A DNA stretch of 64,000 bases from the IMG/VR virus record IMGVR_UViG_2778261375_000003. One strand, 5' to 3'. This DNA comes from a virus. Its lineage: Duplodnaviria; Heunggongvirae; Uroviricota; Caudoviricetes. The translations under genes and the position numbers were made by a program. Shown piece by piece: positions 15,318-50,878 of this stretch. Position 1 is the first letter of the stretch. Every line of letters starts with the position of its first letter. The notes under the pieces were generated by a model, which searched no databases, was not told where the DNA came from, and was given only the letters and a program-made list of their open reading frames with translations.

Positions 15318-15824
15318 TTGAGTATTTTCAATAAACACGCACACCAGGAACGTCCGTATATCGTCATAGTTGATATTGATGGAACAATATCAGAGGCAAC
15401 TGAAGACAGACTGCATTTGCTTCCGCCACCAGGTAAAGGTGCATTAACAAAGGACTGGAACGAGTTTAATCTCGCCTGTGACACCGATACTCCCATCACT
15501 CCAGTTATTGATATGGTGCGCCAGTTATTTAACGTTTACACGGTCTGGTTTGTAACCGGGCGCTGTGAGATCGCAAGGGATAAAACACGAGCCTGGCTGC
15601 GGAAGTACGTAACAAACGGGGCTGAGCCTTTGCTATCTATGCGTCCTGCCACCGATGACAGAAATGACGGCCCAGCAAAGATTGATCTCCTTAAGAAAAT
15701 TGGTCTAAGTAAAATCGCGTTCGCGCTGGAAGATAAGATTGAAGTGGCGCGTGTTTTCAGGAGGAACGGCGTGCTTACGTTAATGGTCAGGGAGTATGAA
15801 AATGCGCTTCTTCATCAACAATGA
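15318..15824 (+). CDS. HAD-superfamily phosphatase-like protein (168 aa)
   Basis: N-terminal VIVDIDGTI matches HAD motif I (DxDGT). Confidence 0.55.
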   Translation: MSIFNKHAHQERPYIVIVDIDGTISEATEDRLHLLPPPGKGALTKDWNEFNLACDTDTPITPVIDMVRQLFNVYTVWFVTGRCEIARDKTRAWLRKYVTNGAEPLLSMRPATDDRNDGPAKIDLLKKIGLSKIAFALEDKIEVARVFRRNGVLTLMVREYENALLHQQ

Positions 15825-15840
15825 TTGCTCTAATAAATCT
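15824..15840 (+). promoter_or_regulatory. C1 operator-like site
   Basis: ATTGCTCTAATAAATCT, one mismatch to consensus, overlapping the stop codon of the preceding gene. Confidence 0.65.
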
Positions 15841-28991: not shown

Positions 28992-30185
28992 GTGACCTGG
29001 GACGATCACAAGAAGAATTTTGCTCGCCTGGCGCGAGATGGTGGTTACACCATCGCACAATATGCCGCCGAGTTTAATCTCAACCCAAACACCGCACGTC
29101 GTTATCTCCGTGCATTCAAAGAAGACACCGGAACAGCGGACAGCCGTAAGCCAAATAAGCCTGTCAGAAAACCACTAAAAAGCATGATCATTGATCACGC
29201 TAATGATCAACGTGCAGGTGATCACATTGTGGCTGAAATGGCTGAAAAACAAAGAGTTAATGCTGTTGTCAGTGCCGCAGTCGAGAACGCGAAGCGCCAG
29301 AATAAGCGCATAAATGATCGTTCTGATGATCATGACGTGATCACCCGCGCCCACCGGACCTTACGTGATCGCCTGGAACGCGACACCCTGGATGATGATG
29401 GTGAACGCTTTGAATTCGAAGCTGGCGATTACCTGATAGATAACGTTGAAGCGCGGAAGGCCGCGCGCGCTATGTTGCGTCGGTCCGGGGCTGATGTTCT
29501 GGAAACCACTCTTCTGGAAAAGTCTCTCTCTCATCTCCTTATGCTGGAGAACGCCAGGGATACGTGTATTCGCTTGGTTCAGGAAATGCGCGATCAGCAA
29601 AAAGACGATGATGAAGGAACTCCGCCTGAATACCGTATCGCGAGCATGCTAAACAGCTGTTCCGCGCAGATAAGCAGCCTGATCAACACCATTTACAGCA
29701 TCCGGAATAACTATCGAAAAGAAAGCCGGGAGGCGGAAAAGCACGCTTTGTCTATGGGGCAAGCTGGCATTGTTAAGCTGGCATACGAACGAAAGCGTGA
29801 AAACAACTGGTCAGTGCTGGAGGCAGCTGAATTCATCGAGGCGCATGGAGGGAAAGTACCGCCCCTGATGCTGGAGCAAATCAAAGCCGATCTGCGTGCT
29901 CCTAAGACCAATACCGATGATGAGGAAAGGCAAACAGCCGTCGGTGGCCCTTCTCTTGAAGATCTGGACAAAGTTGCGCGAGAACGGGCCGCCAACCGCC
30001 GCGCCGATGCCGCATTGTGGATTGAGCAGCGTAGGGAAGAAATCGCCGATATCGTTGATACAGGCGGTTATGGAGATGTTGATACTGAAGGTGTATCAAA
30101 CGACCCATGGCTGGAACAAGACCTGGACGAAGACGAGGAGGAAGACGAAGAAGTTACCCGCAAGCTATACGGGGATGATGATTAA
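28992..30185 (+). CDS. pacA: pacase (terminase) small subunit PacA
   Basis: 397 aa; the pac hexamer cluster lies inside the ORF; acidic C-terminal tail; followed by pacB with ATGA overlap. Confidence 0.8.
29185..29343. other. pac packaging site (4 + 3 TGATCA/G hexamers)
   Basis: TGATCA at 29185, 29192, 29204, 29219 and TGATCG/TGATCA at 29315, 29327, 29338, flanking a roughly 90-bp core. Confidence 0.8.
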
Positions 30186-31669
30186 TGGCCAGAAGTTGCG
30201 TAACGGATCCACGTTGGCGCGAGCTGGTGGCGCTATATCGTTATGACTGGATTGCTGCCGCTGATGTTTTGTTCGGCAAAACACCTACCTGGCAGCAGGA
30301 TCTGATTATTGAGTCTGTGCAGGAACAGGGTAGCAAGACATCTGTTTCGTCTGGTCACGGTACCGGGAAATCAGACATGACTTCTATCATGATCATGTTG
30401 TTCATAATCATGTATCCAGGTGCCCGTGCCATTATCGTTGCGAACAAAATTCAGCAGGTAATGACCGGTATATTCAAGTACATCAAGATAAACTGGGCTA
30501 CTGCCACCAGCCGTTTCCCATGGCTTGCTGATTATTTTGTTCTGACAGAAACCGCTTTCTATGAGATTACTGGTAAAGGTGTATGGACTGTAGTACCGAA
30601 GGGCTTTCGTCTGGGAAGTGAAGAAGCTCTCGCCGGTGAACACGCAGATCATCTTCTGTATATTATCGATGAAGCCTCCGGTGTCAGTGATAGAGCTTTC
30701 GGTATCATCACCGGTGCTCTTACCGGACAGGATAACCGCATCTTATTGCTGTCACAGCCTACACGCCCAAGCGGCTATTTCTACGATACACACCATAAAC
30801 TGGCCAAGCGTCCTGGTAACCCTGATGGCGTTTATACGGCGATCACGCTTAACAGTGAGGAATCACCGTTGGTAACGCCAGCATTTATCAAAATGAAGCT
30901 GGCGGAGTACGGCGGGCGTGATAACCCTATGTACATGATTAAGGTACGCGGCCTATTCCCTAAATCACAGGATGGCTTCCTTCTTGGACGTGATGAGGTT
31001 GAACGTGCAACGCGGCGGAAAGTCAAGATTGCCAAAGGATGGGGCTGGCTTGCATGTGTGGACGTTGCTGGTGGTACGGGACGGGATAAGTCCGTTATCA
31101 ATATCATGATGGTGTCCGGCCAGCGAAATAAACGCCGTGTAATCAACTATCGAATGCTGGAATACACAGACGTTACAGAAACGCAGCTTGCCGCCAAAAT
31201 TTTCGCAGAATGTAATCCTGAGCGATTCCCCAATATCACCATAGCGATAGACGGCGATGGCCTGGGTAAAGCAACGGCGGATCTGATGTACGAGTATTAT
31301 GGTATTACCGTACAGCGTATACGCTGGGGTAAAAAGATGCATAGCCGTGAAGATAAGAGCCTGTACTTTGATAAACGTGCTTATGCCAATGTTCAAGCCG
31401 CAGAGGCCGTAAAATCTGGTCGTATGAGACTGGATAAGGGTAATGAAACTATTGAGGAAGCGTCGAAAATCCCTGTAGGGATTAACTCCGCAGGTCAATG
31501 GAAGGTGATGAGTAAGGAGGATATGAAGAAAAAACTCAACCTGCACTCACCAGACCATTGGGATACATATTGTTTCGCTATGCTGGCGGATTATGTTCCC
31601 CAGGATGAAGTGCTTAGCGTCGAAGACGAAGCGCAGGTTGATGAAGCTCTGGCATGGCTTAATGAATGA
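30185..31669 (+). CDS. pacB: pacase (terminase) large subunit PacB
   Basis: 494 aa with Walker A-like GHGTGKS and terminase nuclease-like C-terminal part. Confidence 0.8.
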
Positions 31670-31672
31670 ATA

Positions 31673-31689
31673 TTTGCTCTAATAAATTG
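31673..31689 (+). promoter_or_regulatory. C1 operator-like site at the pacB 3' end
   Basis: tTTGCTCTAATAAATTg, consensus core intact. Confidence 0.6.
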
Positions 31690-31819
31690 TGTTTTTTAGC
31701 TACCGATGTTACATTGAACCTGACCTCTTGCGCCTTGTGGCATTTTCGGTTTATGCTTATCAGGCACCTCATTAAAACGGGTGCCGGGATTGGCCTCCCG
31801 CTTAAGTCTAAGGCGATAC

Positions 31820-31842
31820 AGACGCCGCTCGCGTCTTTTTTT
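31820..31842 (+). terminator. Rho-independent terminator-like hairpin in the leader of the antirepressor-like module
   Basis: stem agacgc/gcgtct with 5-nt loop, followed by 7 T. Confidence 0.5.
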
Positions 31843-32007
31843 GTATCGGCGTACACGCACACCTCTACAATGGTGGGCTGTATGGGGCTACCTTCGGGTA
31901 GGCTGGTTACCTTGGACGCCAGTAAGGCCAACTCCGTACAGTCCACCGCCAGCAAGATTGGTCTCTTCTGCGGTGGTTACATACCAACGTCTAAGGAGGC
32001 TGCCAAT

Positions 32008-32229
32008 ATGGCTACTATCCCTACCCCAACTCATCCTGAATTTATCTGGCGCTTTTACTCCTGCCAAAAACGTCACTATCACTTCGTTATTGCACCAACA
32101 GAAGATGAGGCCCGCTCTCAGCTTCCTGACGCCCCATGTATTTTCTCTGCCCGTTTTTCCACTGATTCACGCAATTCTCTCAGTTACTGGTGCCTCCCTG
32201 TTAACGCTTCTGCTCAGGAGGGACTATGA
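32008..32229 (+). CDS. small protein (73 aa) translationally coupled to the antirepressor-like gene (Icd-like position)
   Basis: ATG at 32008 preceded by AAGGAGG; stop overlaps the next start (ATGA); the longer track ORF 31666-32229 is a likely over-extension. Confidence 0.5.
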   Translation: MATIPTPTHPEFIWRFYSCQKRHYHFVIAPTEDEARSQLPDAPCIFSARFSTDSRNSLSYWCLPVNASAQEGL

Positions 32230-33344
32230 GAACGTCATTAGTCACCCGTGAAGAGATGATCGAGGCAATTGAACAGCACACTGCCTGTATCAGTACCAGG
32301 GATATACCAGGCGTTATTGCCAACTACTTCATGATCACCAAACAACTTTACCGGAGAAAGGACAAGAACGCGGTTCACCGTATCCTGTTGTCTGATATCC
32401 GCGAATACCTGCTCGAACAGGGTCATCTGAATTACGCAACCGTCGCAGCCGAAGCACGCAAGGAGGCACACAGAATGAAAGCAACTAACGTTAAATCAGA
32501 AAAAATTCATGCACCTTCAGTTCAGGAATCGGAGCTGGTGGTTGTTCAGAATCAGTCTGATGAAATTCCCGTTCTGGAATGGCAGGGAGTGCGTGTAGTG
32601 ACAACCGAGACTCTTGCTAGAGGGTATGGGACAGAAACAATCCGTATTCGCCAAAATCATCATGAGAACAAAGTACGCTTTGTTGAAGGGAAGCACTTTT
32701 TCAAAGTTGAAGGAGAATCATTGCGCGAGTTGAAGCACAGAGTAGCTTTAAACTACTCTGTAAAAATTGCTCGCAATGTTCGCTCACTCACCCTCTGGAC
32801 AGAACGCGGCGCAGCCCGCCACGCTAAAATGCTCGAAACCGATCAGGCATGGGCATTCTTTGAAAAACTGGAAGACAGCTACTTCCGACAAAAAGAACAG
32901 CAACCGATCGCAATCCCCCAGACGCTTCCTGAAGCCCTACGCCTGGCTGCCGAACTGGCTGAACAAAAGCAACTTCTGGAACAGAAAGCCCACCAGCTAA
33001 ATCAGCAGCTGGTGGCCGCCGCTCCTAAAGTCGATTTTGCCGACCGGGTATCAGTAGCTAAAGGGATCCTGATTGGGAATTTTGCAAAGGTTGTTGGACT
33101 TAAGCAAAACGCGCTGTTTGTCTGGTTACGGGAGAACGGCATCCTGATAGCGTCCGGTGGACGTAAAAATGTGCCGTTCCAGCAGTACATCAACGCGGGG
33201 TATTTCACGGTGAAAGAAGTGGTGCTGGATGATGAAGATGGCTACCAGATACGGTTGACGCCTCAATTAACGGGTAAAGGCCAGCAGTGGTTGACGCGTA
33301 AACTGCTCGATGCTGGCTTGTTAAAACCGGTGGCAGCTGAATAA
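32226..33344 (+). CDS. antirepressor-like protein (Rha/ORF6N-type N-terminal domain)
   Basis: 372 aa; IPVLEWQGVRVVTTETLARGYG...VRFVEGKHFFKVEGESL resembles phage antirepressor N-domains; in-frame internal Met near residue 84 would give a shorter isoform. Confidence 0.55.
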   Translation: MRTSLVTREEMIEAIEQHTACISTRDIPGVIANYFMITKQLYRRKDKNAVHRILLSDIREYLLEQGHLNYATVAAEARKEAHRMKATNVKSEKIHAPSVQESELVVVQNQSDEIPVLEWQGVRVVTTETLARGYGTETIRIRQNHHENKVRFVEGKHFFKVEGESLRELKHRVALNYSVKIARNVRSLTLWTERGAARHAKMLETDQAWAFFEKLEDSYFRQKEQQPIAIPQTLPEALRLAAELAEQKQLLEQKAHQLNQQLVAAAPKVDFADRVSVAKGILIGNFAKVVGLKQNALFVWLRENGILIASGGRKNVPFQQYINAGYFTVKEVVLDDEDGYQIRLTPQLTGKGQQWLTRKLLDAGLLKPVAAE

Positions 33345-33376
33345 TGGAAGAATGCCCGGTTGATGCCGGGCATAAT

Positions 33377-34228
33377 TTATTGCGCGCTTTCGGGGTTGTC
33401 GTTTACTGGCTGCCCCTTCTTGGTTTTACGGCTGCGCGTAACTGATGCGGCTGACTTAACCTTTTTCTCTTCGCGAGTGATGGCAATTTGTTTTTTTACA
33501 TTTTCAATATCTGCCAGGCGATATATTTTTGCTTGCGGCCAGCGGTCGCAGATGATCGGTTCTATGGAGTCATAAAGGCTAAATTTTGCTTTTTCGAATT
33601 CACCGTTGATGATAATTCCATCACGGAGAGTTTCATCGCAGATAAACACGCCACACAGTGGCACATGGTAACTAACTGATTTACCATCATTGTAGTTAGG
33701 GCTACTGGAAATGTAGTGGACGCGCAGCATTGTTTCGCTAAAGCCGTGTACGCGCATACGGAATTTTTCATCCTCCGGGTACTGCCTCATTAGCTCTTTT
33801 GTTGCTTCCAGGTTCTCTATGTATTTCGCACTGTGCTCATTGATCCCCGCGCTTTTTTGGATGCGAATGTCCTTATCAATCAGATGAATAATGCGGCCAG
33901 CGGTCATGTTGACGCTGTTCACAGCTTCTGTCTGATAAGTTGTAACCTTGCGCACACCGCGAAGGATGTTAGGCACTGGATATAAAATAGTCTTTGGGAT
34001 ATTGAGGTCTGGGTACTGTTCCAGTTCCCGCGCCATTAAAGTCCATTTATCAATTTCAGCCTGAATGCTGTCAGTTTCTTTGAACGGTAGAACGACAACC
34101 GGGCGTACAGGACGACCGTCGCTGGCTGTATCAACGTGTTGGGCGCGTGCAACGGCTTTTTTTAGAAAGAGATCCCTGAAGCTGACGAACTCCTGGTACA
34201 GTTGTTCGCCGTAGACATAATTTATCAT
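33377..34228 (-). CDS. c1: C1 repressor of lysis
   Basis: 283 aa beginning MINYVYGEQLYQEF; upstream coi and operator cluster; many cognate 17-bp operators in the window. Confidence 0.85.
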   Translation of the reverse strand: MINYVYGEQLYQEFVSFRDLFLKKAVARAQHVDTASDGRPVRPVVVLPFKETDSIQAEIDKWTLMARELEQYPDLNIPKTILYPVPNILRGVRKVTTYQTEAVNSVNMTAGRIIHLIDKDIRIQKSAGINEHSAKYIENLEATKELMRQYPEDEKFRMRVHGFSETMLRVHYISSSPNYNDGKSVSYHVPLCGVFICDETLRDGIIINGEFEKAKFSLYDSIEPIICDRWPQAKIYRLADIENVKKQIAITREEKKVKSAASVTRSRKTKKGQPVNDNPESAQ

Positions 34229-34322
34229 TGATCCTCCTCCAGAATTGACATGGTCAATAACGCCCGGCTGAGAAAACCGGTCATTACTGACCTATATTAT
34301 AGAGGGATCAAACAAAAATAAT

Positions 34323-34339
34323 AGATTTATTAGTGCATT
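34323..34339 (-). promoter_or_regulatory. C1 operator-like site between coi and c1
   Basis: gatttattagtgcattt is the reverse complement of an operator variant (3 mismatches). Confidence 0.5.
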
Positions 34340-34548
34340 TATTGTGAGTCTAACTGGTTAGTTGCCATGAGATATTCGATTGTGTCAGTGAGGTCATCCA
34401 GGTCGTCTTGGGTGATGCGGTACTCCTGATTGGATATCTTTGAGTAGTGTTCAGCAATGGCGCGGGCAGCGTCGGTTTCGGCAGGGTCTACAGATAAAGC
34501 GTTAGAGCAATGTCTAACGTCGTCGATGGTTGGTTGAATGAAAGCCAT
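34339..34548 (-). CDS. coi: C1 inactivator Coi
   Basis: 69-aa ORF directly upstream of c1 on the same strand. Confidence 0.75.
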   Translation of the reverse strand: MAFIQPTIDDVRHCSNALSVDPAETDAARAIAEHYSKISNQEYRITQDDLDDLTDTIEYLMATNQLDSQ

Positions 34549-34786: not shown

Positions 34787-34803
34787 TAATTTATTAGAGC
34801 AAT
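34787..34803 (-). promoter_or_regulatory. C1 operator
   Basis: taatttattagagcaat is the reverse complement of ATTGCTCTAATAAATTA. Confidence 0.7.
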
Positions 34804-35373: not shown

Positions 35374-36405
35374 ATGTCCAATTTACTGACCGTACACCAA
35401 AATTTGCCTGCATTACCGGTCGATGCAACGAGTGATGAGGTTCGCAAGAACCTGATGGACATGTTCAGGGATCGCCAGGCGTTTTCTGAGCATACCTGGA
35501 AAATGCTTCTGTCCGTTTGCCGGTCGTGGGCGGCATGGTGCAAGTTGAATAACCGGAAATGGTTTCCCGCAGAACCTGAAGATGTTCGCGATTATCTTCT
35601 ATATCTTCAGGCGCGCGGTCTGGCAGTAAAAACTATCCAGCAACATTTGGGCCAGCTAAACATGCTTCATCGTCGGTCCGGGCTGCCACGACCAAGTGAC
35701 AGCAACGCTGTTTCACTGGTCATGCGGCGGATCCGAAAAGAAAACGTTGATGCCGGTGAACGTGCAAAACAGGCACTAGCGTTCGAACGCACTGATTTCG
35801 ACCAGGTTCGTTCACTCATGGAAAATAGCGATCGCTGCCAGGATATACGTAATCTGGCATTTCTGGGGATTGCTTATAACACCCTGTTACGTATAGCCGA
35901 AATTGCCAGGATCAGGGTTAAAGATATCTCACGTACTGACGGTGGGAGAATGTTAATCCATATTGGCAGAACGAAAACGCTGGTTAGCACCGCAGGTGTA
36001 GAGAAGGCACTTAGCCTGGGGGTAACTAAACTGGTCGAGCGATGGATTTCTGTCTCTGGTGTGGCTGATGATCCGAATAACTACTTGTTTTGCCGGGTCA
36101 GAAAAAATGGTGTTGCCTCGCCATCATCCACCAGCCAGCTATCAACTCGCGCCCTGGAAGGGATTTTTGAAGCAACTCACCGATTGATTTACGGGGCTAA
36201 GGATGACTCTGGTCAGAGGTACCTGGCCTGGTCTGGACACAGTGCCCGTGTCGGAGCCGCGCGAGATATGGCCCGCGCCGGAGTTTCAATACCGGAGATC
36301 ATGCAAGCTGGTGGCTGGACCAACGTAAATATTGTCATGAACTATATCCGTAATCTGGATAGTGAAACGGGGGCAATGGTGCGCCTGCTGGAAGATGGTG
36401 ATTAG
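35374..36405 (+). CDS. cre: Cre tyrosine recombinase
   Basis: 343 aa beginning MSNLLTVHQNLPALPVDATSDEVRKNLMDMFRDRQAFSEHTWK; near-identical to Cre as recalled, with a few substitutions (e.g. VASPSSTSQ). Confidence 0.97.
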   Translation: MSNLLTVHQNLPALPVDATSDEVRKNLMDMFRDRQAFSEHTWKMLLSVCRSWAAWCKLNNRKWFPAEPEDVRDYLLYLQARGLAVKTIQQHLGQLNMLHRRSGLPRPSDSNAVSLVMRRIRKENVDAGERAKQALAFERTDFDQVRSLMENSDRCQDIRNLAFLGIAYNTLLRIAEIARIRVKDISRTDGGRMLIHIGRTKTLVSTAGVEKALSLGVTKLVERWISVSGVADDPNNYLFCRVRKNGVASPSSTSQLSTRALEGIFEATHRLIYGAKDDSGQRYLAWSGHSARVGAARDMARAGVSIPEIMQAGGWTNVNIVMNYIRNLDSETGAMVRLLEDGD

Positions 36406-50861: not shown

Positions 50862-50878
50862 ATTGCTCTAATTAATTT
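50862..50878 (+). promoter_or_regulatory. C1 operator upstream of ssb
   Basis: ATTGCTCTAATTAATTT. Confidence 0.7.

Follow-up and report, generated by a model that had tools for sequence, protein, structure and literature searches.

Sequence evidence for a probable second immI-type immunity module between pacB and c1 of a P1-like phage

We analyzed a stretch of 64,000 nucleotides (hereafter, the window) from the IMG/VR virus record IMGVR_UViG_2778261375_000003, where the region of interest is set in a P1-like (Punavirus) genome, and found that the gap between pacB and c1 very probably holds a complete second immunity module of the immI type (we put the probability at roughly 0.85, judging from sequence). 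In phage P1, the antisense RNA c4 pairs through its b' loop and a' junction with the targets b2 and a2 on the icd-ant mRNA, and copies of these targets, b1 and a1, are located upstream (AF234172 annotation). For every element of the annotated P1 immI, from the operator and promoters through a1, b1, c4, a2, b2, and icd to ant1 and ant2, the window has an aligned counterpart (Table 1). The original prediction, which was made from the sequence alone, had recognized an immI-like architecture consisting of an operator, a structured leader, and a small open reading frame (ORF) coupled to an antirepressor with two starts, and the alignment with P1 bears this out. Throughout this work, the functions of P1 elements are taken from the AF234172 annotation, PMC8546580, PMC8201110, and general background on P1.

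The correspondence with immI of P1 and P7 extends to order and spacing, which are the same for every element. The distance from the operator to c4 is ~193 nt in the window and 203 nt in P1, that from a1 to b1 is 16 nt as compared with 14 nt, and that from a2 to b2 is 31 nt as compared with 29 nt. In both cases icd encodes 73 amino acids (aa) and overlaps ant through the same ATGA, and the Ant2 start falls at codon 84. In contrast, the two loci differ in position, a feature that is not mechanistic: the window module is found between pacB and c1, and not between sim and kilA-repL, which P1 immI adjoins. In addition, the c4 scaffold of the window belongs to a different sequence class, with a leader that scores as isrK rather than as c4-a1b1, its a and b codes are different and predicted to be orthogonal, and the middle of Ant is replaced by an ORF6N domain.

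Two RNA families were identified in the leader. The first is isrK (Rfam RF01394), which matches the plus strand at 31764-31841 over model positions 1-77 of 77 with 60.8 bits (gathering score, 50); with a covariance match above the gathering score that includes the 3' intrinsic terminator, the leader belongs to the IsrK family. A sub-threshold Rfam match to c4-a1b1 overlaps the isrK match, and we therefore regard the isrK-type leader as the counterpart of the P1 a1/b1 region plus a terminator. The second is the C4 antisense RNA (RF01695), encoded on the same strand as icd-ant, with a full-length match on the plus strand at 31866-31953 (75.9 bits; gathering score, 45), so that the earlier suggestion of a structured leader possibly encoding a c4-like antisense RNA was well founded. 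This was the single C4 returned by the Rfam scan of the window, and the segment folds into the three-helix shape of the family (-41.6 kcal/mol, z = -4.21). The intrinsic terminator proposed at 31820-31842 is likewise present, with its stem and a run of 7 T. The length of this T-run (31836-31842) varies from 6 to 9 T in otherwise near-identical loci (L008-L070), which could tune the ratio between the terminated IsrK-type RNA and read-through, or could be homopolymer sequencing noise.

Folding predicted for the leader as a whole pairs a1/b1 in cis with a'/b', an arrangement reminiscent of the inactive "structure A" described for IsrK (PMC4825925). The a1/b1 sites could act as a decoy for c4, exert a P4-like control of the adjacent terminator, or serve as a folding aid; given their complementarity to c4 and the predicted cis pairing, a decoy role is plausible.

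To characterize the contacts of c4, 79 related loci were fetched from IMG/VR and sorted by context and by code, and 16 distinct leaders of the isrK-type scaffold class were used for the co-variation alignment. The internal helices of c4 were paired in 100% of the cells of this alignment, with 9 pairs changed on both sides. The contacts of a' with a2 and of b' with b2 were paired in 95.3% of the cells (7 of 16 pairs changed on both sides), and those of a1 with a' and of b1 with b' in 100% (7 of 15 pairs changed on both sides). When the partners were slid by 1 to 3 columns as a control, pairing amounted to only 27-56%. The phage-plasmid RCS47 provides an example of such co-variation, as its a' GUCUCAA is accompanied by UUGAGAC and its b' CCUUUGAC by GUCAAAGG, whereas the window has AGGCCAA as a' and CCUUGGAC as b'; the RCS47 leader is otherwise similar, and its promoter region and icd are nearly identical to those of the window. 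The a and b codes assort independently among alleles, and predicted energies are -23 to -29 kcal/mol for cognate duplexes versus -6 to -18 kcal/mol for non-cognate ones. In one allele group (L047, L048, L054, and relatives; 14 loci), icd starts with GTG and not with ATG, together with the b code GCAAAAGG.

The b2 target (31988-31996) overlaps the icd Shine-Dalgarno sequence AAGGAGG (31993-31999), a layout that is also seen for the annotated P1 b2. The original prediction had called for a search for leader segments complementary to the ribosome-binding site of the 73-aa ORF, and the b' loop of c4, pairing with b2 over this Shine-Dalgarno sequence, is such a segment. Both copies of the reported direct repeat GTCTAAGG were found as well, at 31806-31813 and 31989-31996, although the first begins at 31806 and not at 31807. 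An exact 8-mer that occurs twice in 64 kb is not beyond chance by itself; this one is significant because it is complementary to the c4 loop and co-varies with it. In other words, the two copies of the repeat are b1 and b2, the targets of the c4 loop. A search of the window for further c4 targets in trans (CGTCTAAGG, at most 1 mismatch) yielded 6 matches where 8.7 were expected, of which only those at b1, b2, and the c4 loop itself are meaningful.

The leader might alternatively encode an "Ash family protein" instead of RNAs, given that an ORF of 187 aa (31666-32229), whose ATG overlaps the pacB stop, runs in frame into icd. Residues 35-126 of this ORF match Pfam Phage_ASH (PF10554) with 44.5 bits, and RefSeq annotation places a partial "ash family protein" pseudogene at 31666-31983. 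We find this hardly credible, because a stop is located 6 codons before the icd ATG in 36 related loci, the variation of the terminator T-run shifts the frame among near-identical loci, the leader varies in a manner that tracks RNA pairing rather than codons, and the match falls exactly on isrK, c4, and the a2/b2 targets. Membership of the leader ORF in the Ash family was rejected, as in most related loci its frame is either interrupted or displaced. The Phage_ASH match is best explained as translated RNA sequence, and PF10554, a P4-derived family, may partly model such translated sequence.

Table 1. Features of the pacB-c1 interval and neighbouring genes (window coordinates)
Feature	Position	Strand	Remarks
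pacA	28992-30185	+	gene
pacB	30185-31669	+	gene
C1 operator TTTGCTCTAATAAATTG	31673-31689	+	2 mismatches to consensus ATTGCTCTAATAAATTT
Putative C1-controlled promoter TTGTGT-17 nt-TACATT	31687-31715	+	positional homologue of P1 P2c4/P51a
Putative constitutive promoter TTGCGC-18 nt-TATGCT	31728-31757	+	positional homologue of P1 P1c4/P51b
IsrK-type / a1b1 leader RNA	31764-31842	+	hairpin 1, hairpin 2 with a1 in loop, single-stranded b1, intrinsic terminator
a1 target TTGGCCT (UUGGCCU in RNA)	31790-31796	+	7/7 Watson-Crick pairs to a'; co-varies
b1 target GTCTAAGG (GUCUAAGG in RNA)	31806-31813	+	8 bp including one G.U to b'; co-varies
Intrinsic terminator of leader	31820-31842	+	6-bp GC-rich stem 31820-31836, then run of 7 T
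c4 antisense RNA	31872-31950	+	mature ends predicted by alignment with the 77-nt P1 c4
b' loop of c4, CCUUGGACG	31910-31918	+	pairs with b1, b2
a' segment of c4, AGGCCAA	31925-31931	+	junction segment; pairs with a1, a2
a2 target TTGGTCT (UUGGUCU in RNA)	31958-31964	+	7 bp with one G.U to a'; co-varies
b2 target CGTCTAAGG (CGUCUAAGG in RNA)	31988-31996	+	9 bp with one G.U to b'; co-varies
icd-like gene, 73 aa	32008-32229	+	cell-division inhibitor homologue, coupling ORF; stop 32227-32229
ant1-like gene, 372 aa	32226-33344	+	start overlaps icd stop (ATGA)
ant2-like internal start, Met84	32475-33344	+	289-aa product predicted; Shine-Dalgarno AAGGAGG 32460-32466, 8 nt upstream
GC-rich hairpin	33352-33373		between convergent ant and c1; likely terminator
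c1	33377-34228	-	gene
coi	34339-34548	-	gene
cre	35374-36405	+	gene

At the head of the module, the C1 operator that had been noticed right after pacB at 31673-31689 is indeed present and aligns column for column with the annotated P1 Op51/Oc4. The window contains 14 C1-operator-like sites at no more than 3 mismatches (0.29 expected), which fits the dispersed C1 regulon of P1; among the other sites are 15824-15840, 34787-34803, and 50862-50878. Both putative promoters were placed solely through alignment with the annotated P1 promoters, and a consensus promoter scan of the leader called no plus-strand promoter. The putative -35 element of the first (31687-31715) shares 3 nt with the operator end, as in P1, and transcription from the second (31728-31757) is expected to start at ~31764, precisely where the isrK match begins.

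The 73-aa product matches NCBIfam phage_ICD_like with 49.8 bits and shares 74% identity with P1 Icd and 99% with RCS47 Icd, in line with the icd-like identity suggested for it. The gene, whose dN/dS is 0.02-0.09, has the strong ribosome-binding site previously described and a stop that overlaps the start of the 372-aa ORF (ATGA, 32226-32229), but its start is at 32008 and not at 32009. This overlap suggests that icd and ant are translationally coupled.

The product of the 372-aa ORF proved to be antirepressor-like, as anticipated, with ORF6N and ANT/KilAC domains and 56% identity to P1 Ant1 over the full length, where the N-terminus is similar, the middle unrelated, and the C-terminus near-identical (87% identity to P1 Ant over residues 230-372). 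Pfam analysis places the ORF6N middle at residues 116-202, following an N-terminal extension (residues 1-83), and the KilAC (ANT) domain, PF03374, at residues 260-361 (107.9 bits versus a cut-off of 25.3). The in-frame internal methionine pointed out earlier as a second start is Met84 (32475), which has its own AAGGAGG, occupies the same codon position as the annotated P1 ant2 start, and is accompanied by a conserved RKEAHRM motif. For ant, dN/dS is 0.22-0.43. Among the fetched loci, Ant residues 1-83 and 230-372 are ~99% identical in most alleles, whereas residues 84-229 (32475-32912 in the window) are hypervariable or replaced, ranging from 100% down to 18% identity; the neighbouring C1 is 97-100% identical in loci where it is complete. 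Given that the Ant middle varies while C1 is near-invariant, the middle does not track C1, and the conserved Ant ends would appear to be better candidates for contact with C1.

The same variability can be read differently, namely that the circuit operates as in P1 but that Ant mainly targets the repressors of other prophages or a host factor, and so serves competition between phages and not P1 immunity. The divergence of the Ant middle next to a nearly constant C1 points this way, as do the ORF6N middle domain, which P1 Ant does not have, and the use of the same isrK-C4 scaffold to drive Rha-type regulators in Stx phages. However, the ~99% conservation of residues 1-83 and of the KilAC part (230-372) fits an invariant partner such as C1, the KilAC part is shared with P1 Ant to the extent given above, and the C1 operator at the head of the module ties it to the C1 regulon. 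We therefore consider such a change of target rather unlikely.

The module resides in a 1.7 kb block (31670-33375) that fills the pacB-c1 gap of the window. In P1, only 24 nt separate the pacB stop from the c1 stop, and it is this spacer, also present in P7 and SJ46, that is replaced here, so that the interval is not colinear with canonical P1; such colinearity had been named in the original prediction as grounds for refuting it. With 31000-34300 of the window as the query, P1, P7, SJ46, and phiW39 matched the flanks only and have no counterpart of the block, which is spanned by matches to the phages vB_EcoM-673R5 (99.4% identity), RCS47 (95.8%, over 96% of the query), and JL22 (93.5%). When the region is aligned with the empty sites of P1 and SJ46, the extra DNA has its left end precisely at the stop codon of pacB and its right end inside the old spacer, at ~33360-33376. 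At the block ends, where no repeat search was run, we noticed no inverted repeat, att-like site, or transposase gene. Transcription of the module is directed towards c1, and the hairpin at 33352-33373, which is partly homologous to the pacB-c1 spacer of P1 and SJ46, separates ant from c1. Elsewhere in the window, three tRNA genes are found on the plus strand (683-755, 761-833, and 2464-2536), whose 673R5 counterparts are annotated as tRNA-Asn, tRNA-Thr, and tRNA-Met.

The original prediction had left it between a rearranged and a secondary immunity module, and the relatives of the window favor the latter. The canonical immI position is outside the window, and a tblastn search of the window found no third icd/ant copy. 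Plasmid pE2-2 (NZ_CP048917), which is 100% identical over 31400-33700 of the window, also carries icd-ant-kilA-repL at 39-42 kb, and 673R5 also carries sim, c4-a1b1, C4, ant, kilA, and repL. The canonical c4 codes of both relatives (in pE2-2, b' CACAAUC and a' CUGCUAA) are unrelated to the code of the window module. Predicted duplex energies are -25.0 kcal/mol for the cognate duplex of the window module compared with -7.6 and -7.7 kcal/mol for the crosses with the co-resident canonical module, and the P1 code against a P7-like code gives -13.5 kcal/mol compared with -28.5 kcal/mol for the cognate duplex. P1 and P7 are a known heteroimmune pair. By these energies, the window module and the canonical module of its matching relatives are predicted to be orthogonal.

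Had the only immI of this phage been moved from the kilA-repL side into the pacB-c1 gap, and not duplicated, the window would look the same, as it does not cover the canonical position; cassettes do move, as indicated by the IMG/VR loci L034 and L044, in which an isrK-type c4 cassette stands at the canonical site and is followed by kilA. Such a relocation is nevertheless very unlikely, since pE2-2 and 673R5 carry both loci and the top E. coli plasmid matches have at least two matching places per record.

Several observations on copy number and context accompany this analysis. Three or more icd-ant modules are present on the contig IMGVR_UViG_2698536372_000019 (L014 3001-5465, L080, and L085), including a tandem pair immediately following pacB, and as many as 7 matching places occur in E. 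coli genomes; elements therefore differ in how many modules they carry. In L074, L081, and L083, an Ant 99% identical to that of the window is found behind P1-type c4 cassettes, with no pacB or c1 within ~3 kb. The RNA cassette, the Ant body, and the genomic site recombine independently.

Some points weigh against a complete and functional second module. The word "second" relies on relatives and not on the window's own genome, for which the canonical locus is presumed. Both putative promoters are poor relative to the sigma-70 consensus (7/12 by our count) and escaped the promoter scan. The b and a2 duplexes contain one G.U pair each, and the cognate duplex reaches -25.0 kcal/mol as compared with -28.5 kcal/mol in P1. 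Finally, the ORF6N middle of Ant is unrelated to the P1 Ant middle (~19% identity), and activity against C1 is therefore extrapolated from the conserved N- and C-terminal parts. Weak promoters, a G.U pair in the b duplex, and a mosaic Ant would also be expected of a decaying, non-functional remnant of recombination whose ORFs are intact by chance. We regard this as highly improbable, because both ORFs are intact and under purifying selection, every RNA contact has been kept by compensatory changes over at least five allele combinations, and the module occurs in hundreds of independent plasmids.

Taking the block as a working second immI, we propose the following course of events by homology with P1 (AF234172 annotation, PMC8546580, PMC8201110) and Gifsy-1 (PMC4825925). 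Transcription would begin just downstream of the C1 operator, from a C1-controlled P51a-like promoter and a constitutive P51b-like promoter. Part of the transcripts would end at the leader terminator, giving an IsrK-type RNA of ~79 nt with a1 and b1, and read-through transcripts would be processed to a c4 RNA of ~79 nt; in P1, RNase P makes the 5' end of c4. The b' loop and a' junction of c4 would then pair with b2 and a2 of the same mRNA and cover the ribosome-binding site of icd, so that icd would not be translated and the coupled ant1/ant2 would remain silent. Where c4 is absent, non-cognate, or titrated, Icd and Ant would be made, with Icd blocking cell division and Ant presumably antagonizing C1 and thereby directing the element towards lytic growth. 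In P1, c4 represses ant in trans, and C1 is inactivated by a complex of Ant1 and Ant2. Because the c4 code of the module is predicted to be orthogonal to that of the canonical immI in relatives of 99-100% identity, two antirepressors would each be kept under an independent RNA "lock" in a lysogen. In this scheme, the promoters, the RNA processing, the repression of translation, C1 as the target of Ant, and a canonical locus in the genome to which the window belongs are inferred.

Related arrangements are found in other phages. In Salmonella, the Gifsy-1 isrK-orf45-anrP locus comprises the IsrK small RNA, the processed STnc1160 RNA, a coupled small ORF, and the antirepressor AnrP (PMC4825925). 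Like the window module, for which read-through, RNA processing, and coupling are predicted, it has an IsrK-family leader that ends in a terminator and is partly read through, a stable processed RNA of ~80 nt downstream to which IsrK is complementary, and a small ORF coupled to the antirepressor via an AUGA overlap. The coupling ORF of the window is, however, a separate 73-aa icd located 3' of c4, whereas that of Gifsy-1 is a 45-codon ORF overlapping the processed RNA, and the window module differs further in being under a C1 operator. Hfq binding and the activation, by a short RNA in trans, of translation of the downstream ORF and antirepressor have been shown for Gifsy-1 (PMC4825925), and such activation may also apply to the window module.

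The Stx2 phage F039 (LC710660), in which isrK and C4 are both annotated, carries a 250-nt scaffold that is 87% identical to that of the window, with the differences concentrated in a1/a'/a2, b1/b'/b2, and one compensated hairpin stem. Unlike the window module, the cassette of Stx-converting lambdoid phages is located directly upstream of a Rha-family regulator and is accompanied by neither icd nor a C1 operator. P4 immunity (CI RNA; seqA/seqB/seqC) is similar in that a processed small RNA is flanked by complementary sites up- and downstream on one transcript, and IsrK has been called a structural homologue of P4 seqA (PMC4825925); in contrast, CI acts via premature transcription termination and controls no icd-ant pair. 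RCS47, pTZ20_1P, and other P1-like phage-plasmids have an ant insertion at the same pacB-c1 site as the window, although RCS47 differs in its codes, as described above, and in the Ant middle domain, which is 75% identical to that of the window.

Our survey of public data shows that the module is widespread. In PLSDB, 703 records match a pacB-c1 junction probe, 314 of which have a contiguous P1-type junction and 271 a window-like module. Complete E. coli genomes carry the module in 249 of 5,426 cases, and more than 55 IMG/VR loci have it at the pacB-c1 site. By our count, the isrK-type scaffold of the pacB-c1 site bears at least five code combinations, and the P1-type scaffold of canonical and other sites bears at least eight. 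The RCS47 record (FO818745) annotates the large ORF as "ant", and RefSeq annotates the block with an "Icd-like protein", a "KilAC antirepressor", and the partial "ash family protein" pseudogene on the leader, with no RNA. A single sentence of Venturini et al. 2019 (PMC6906374) notes that pTZ20_1P shares with RCS47 an insertion of two short ORFs and ant between pacB and c1; the records of such insertions examined here annotate no RNA component, and none is mentioned in the passages of that paper drawn on here. Our literature search found no paper on c4/IsrK RNAs, codes, or orthogonality at the pacB-c1 site. In the 673R5 record (ON470615.2; L002, L006, and L007), pacA, c1, hsdR, and other genes are split and one C is missing from leader hairpin 2; the record probably contains many indel errors, which account for the lack of an isrK match at the gathering threshold in its leader. 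Collectively, the module is common in public data, partly annotated, and barely discussed, and it is an extra copy of a known system and not a new kind of system.

These findings are of value chiefly for the two-lock architecture, for the diversity of alleles, and for bringing c4-a1b1, IsrK, and P4-type cassettes under one heading. The locus joins c4 and a1/b1 of P1, IsrK and STnc1160 of Salmonella, and seqA and CI of P4 as one modular RNA cassette, while the respective literatures usually stand apart. From a practical viewpoint, public annotation labels the RNA leader as an "ash family protein" pseudogene and omits the RNAs.

In E. coli and Salmonella, P1-like phage-plasmids often carry resistance genes, those for extended-spectrum beta-lactamases (ESBL) among them, and whether two P1-like elements share a cell, exclude, or induce each other hinges on the immunity systems that they possess. 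Since a second c4-icd-ant module, predicted to be orthogonal, occupies about 4 of every 10 P1-type pacB-c1 junctions in PLSDB, P1 immunity in nature would often be a two-lock system, with the P1/P7 heteroimmunity as one case among many alleles. More tentatively, interchangeable c4 cassettes may serve P1-like phage-plasmids as a combinatorial RNA "barcode" of immunity, with independent a and b codes on a fixed scaffold, at least two orthogonal modules per genome, and swappable Ant middles. If this were true, the terminated IsrK-type leader would be a sponge for its own c4 and give a toggle made up of three RNAs, it would depend on how many modules are present, and which ones, what P1-like elements can co-exist, exclude, or induce one another, and the spread of resistance genes on P1-like plasmids would be shaped accordingly.

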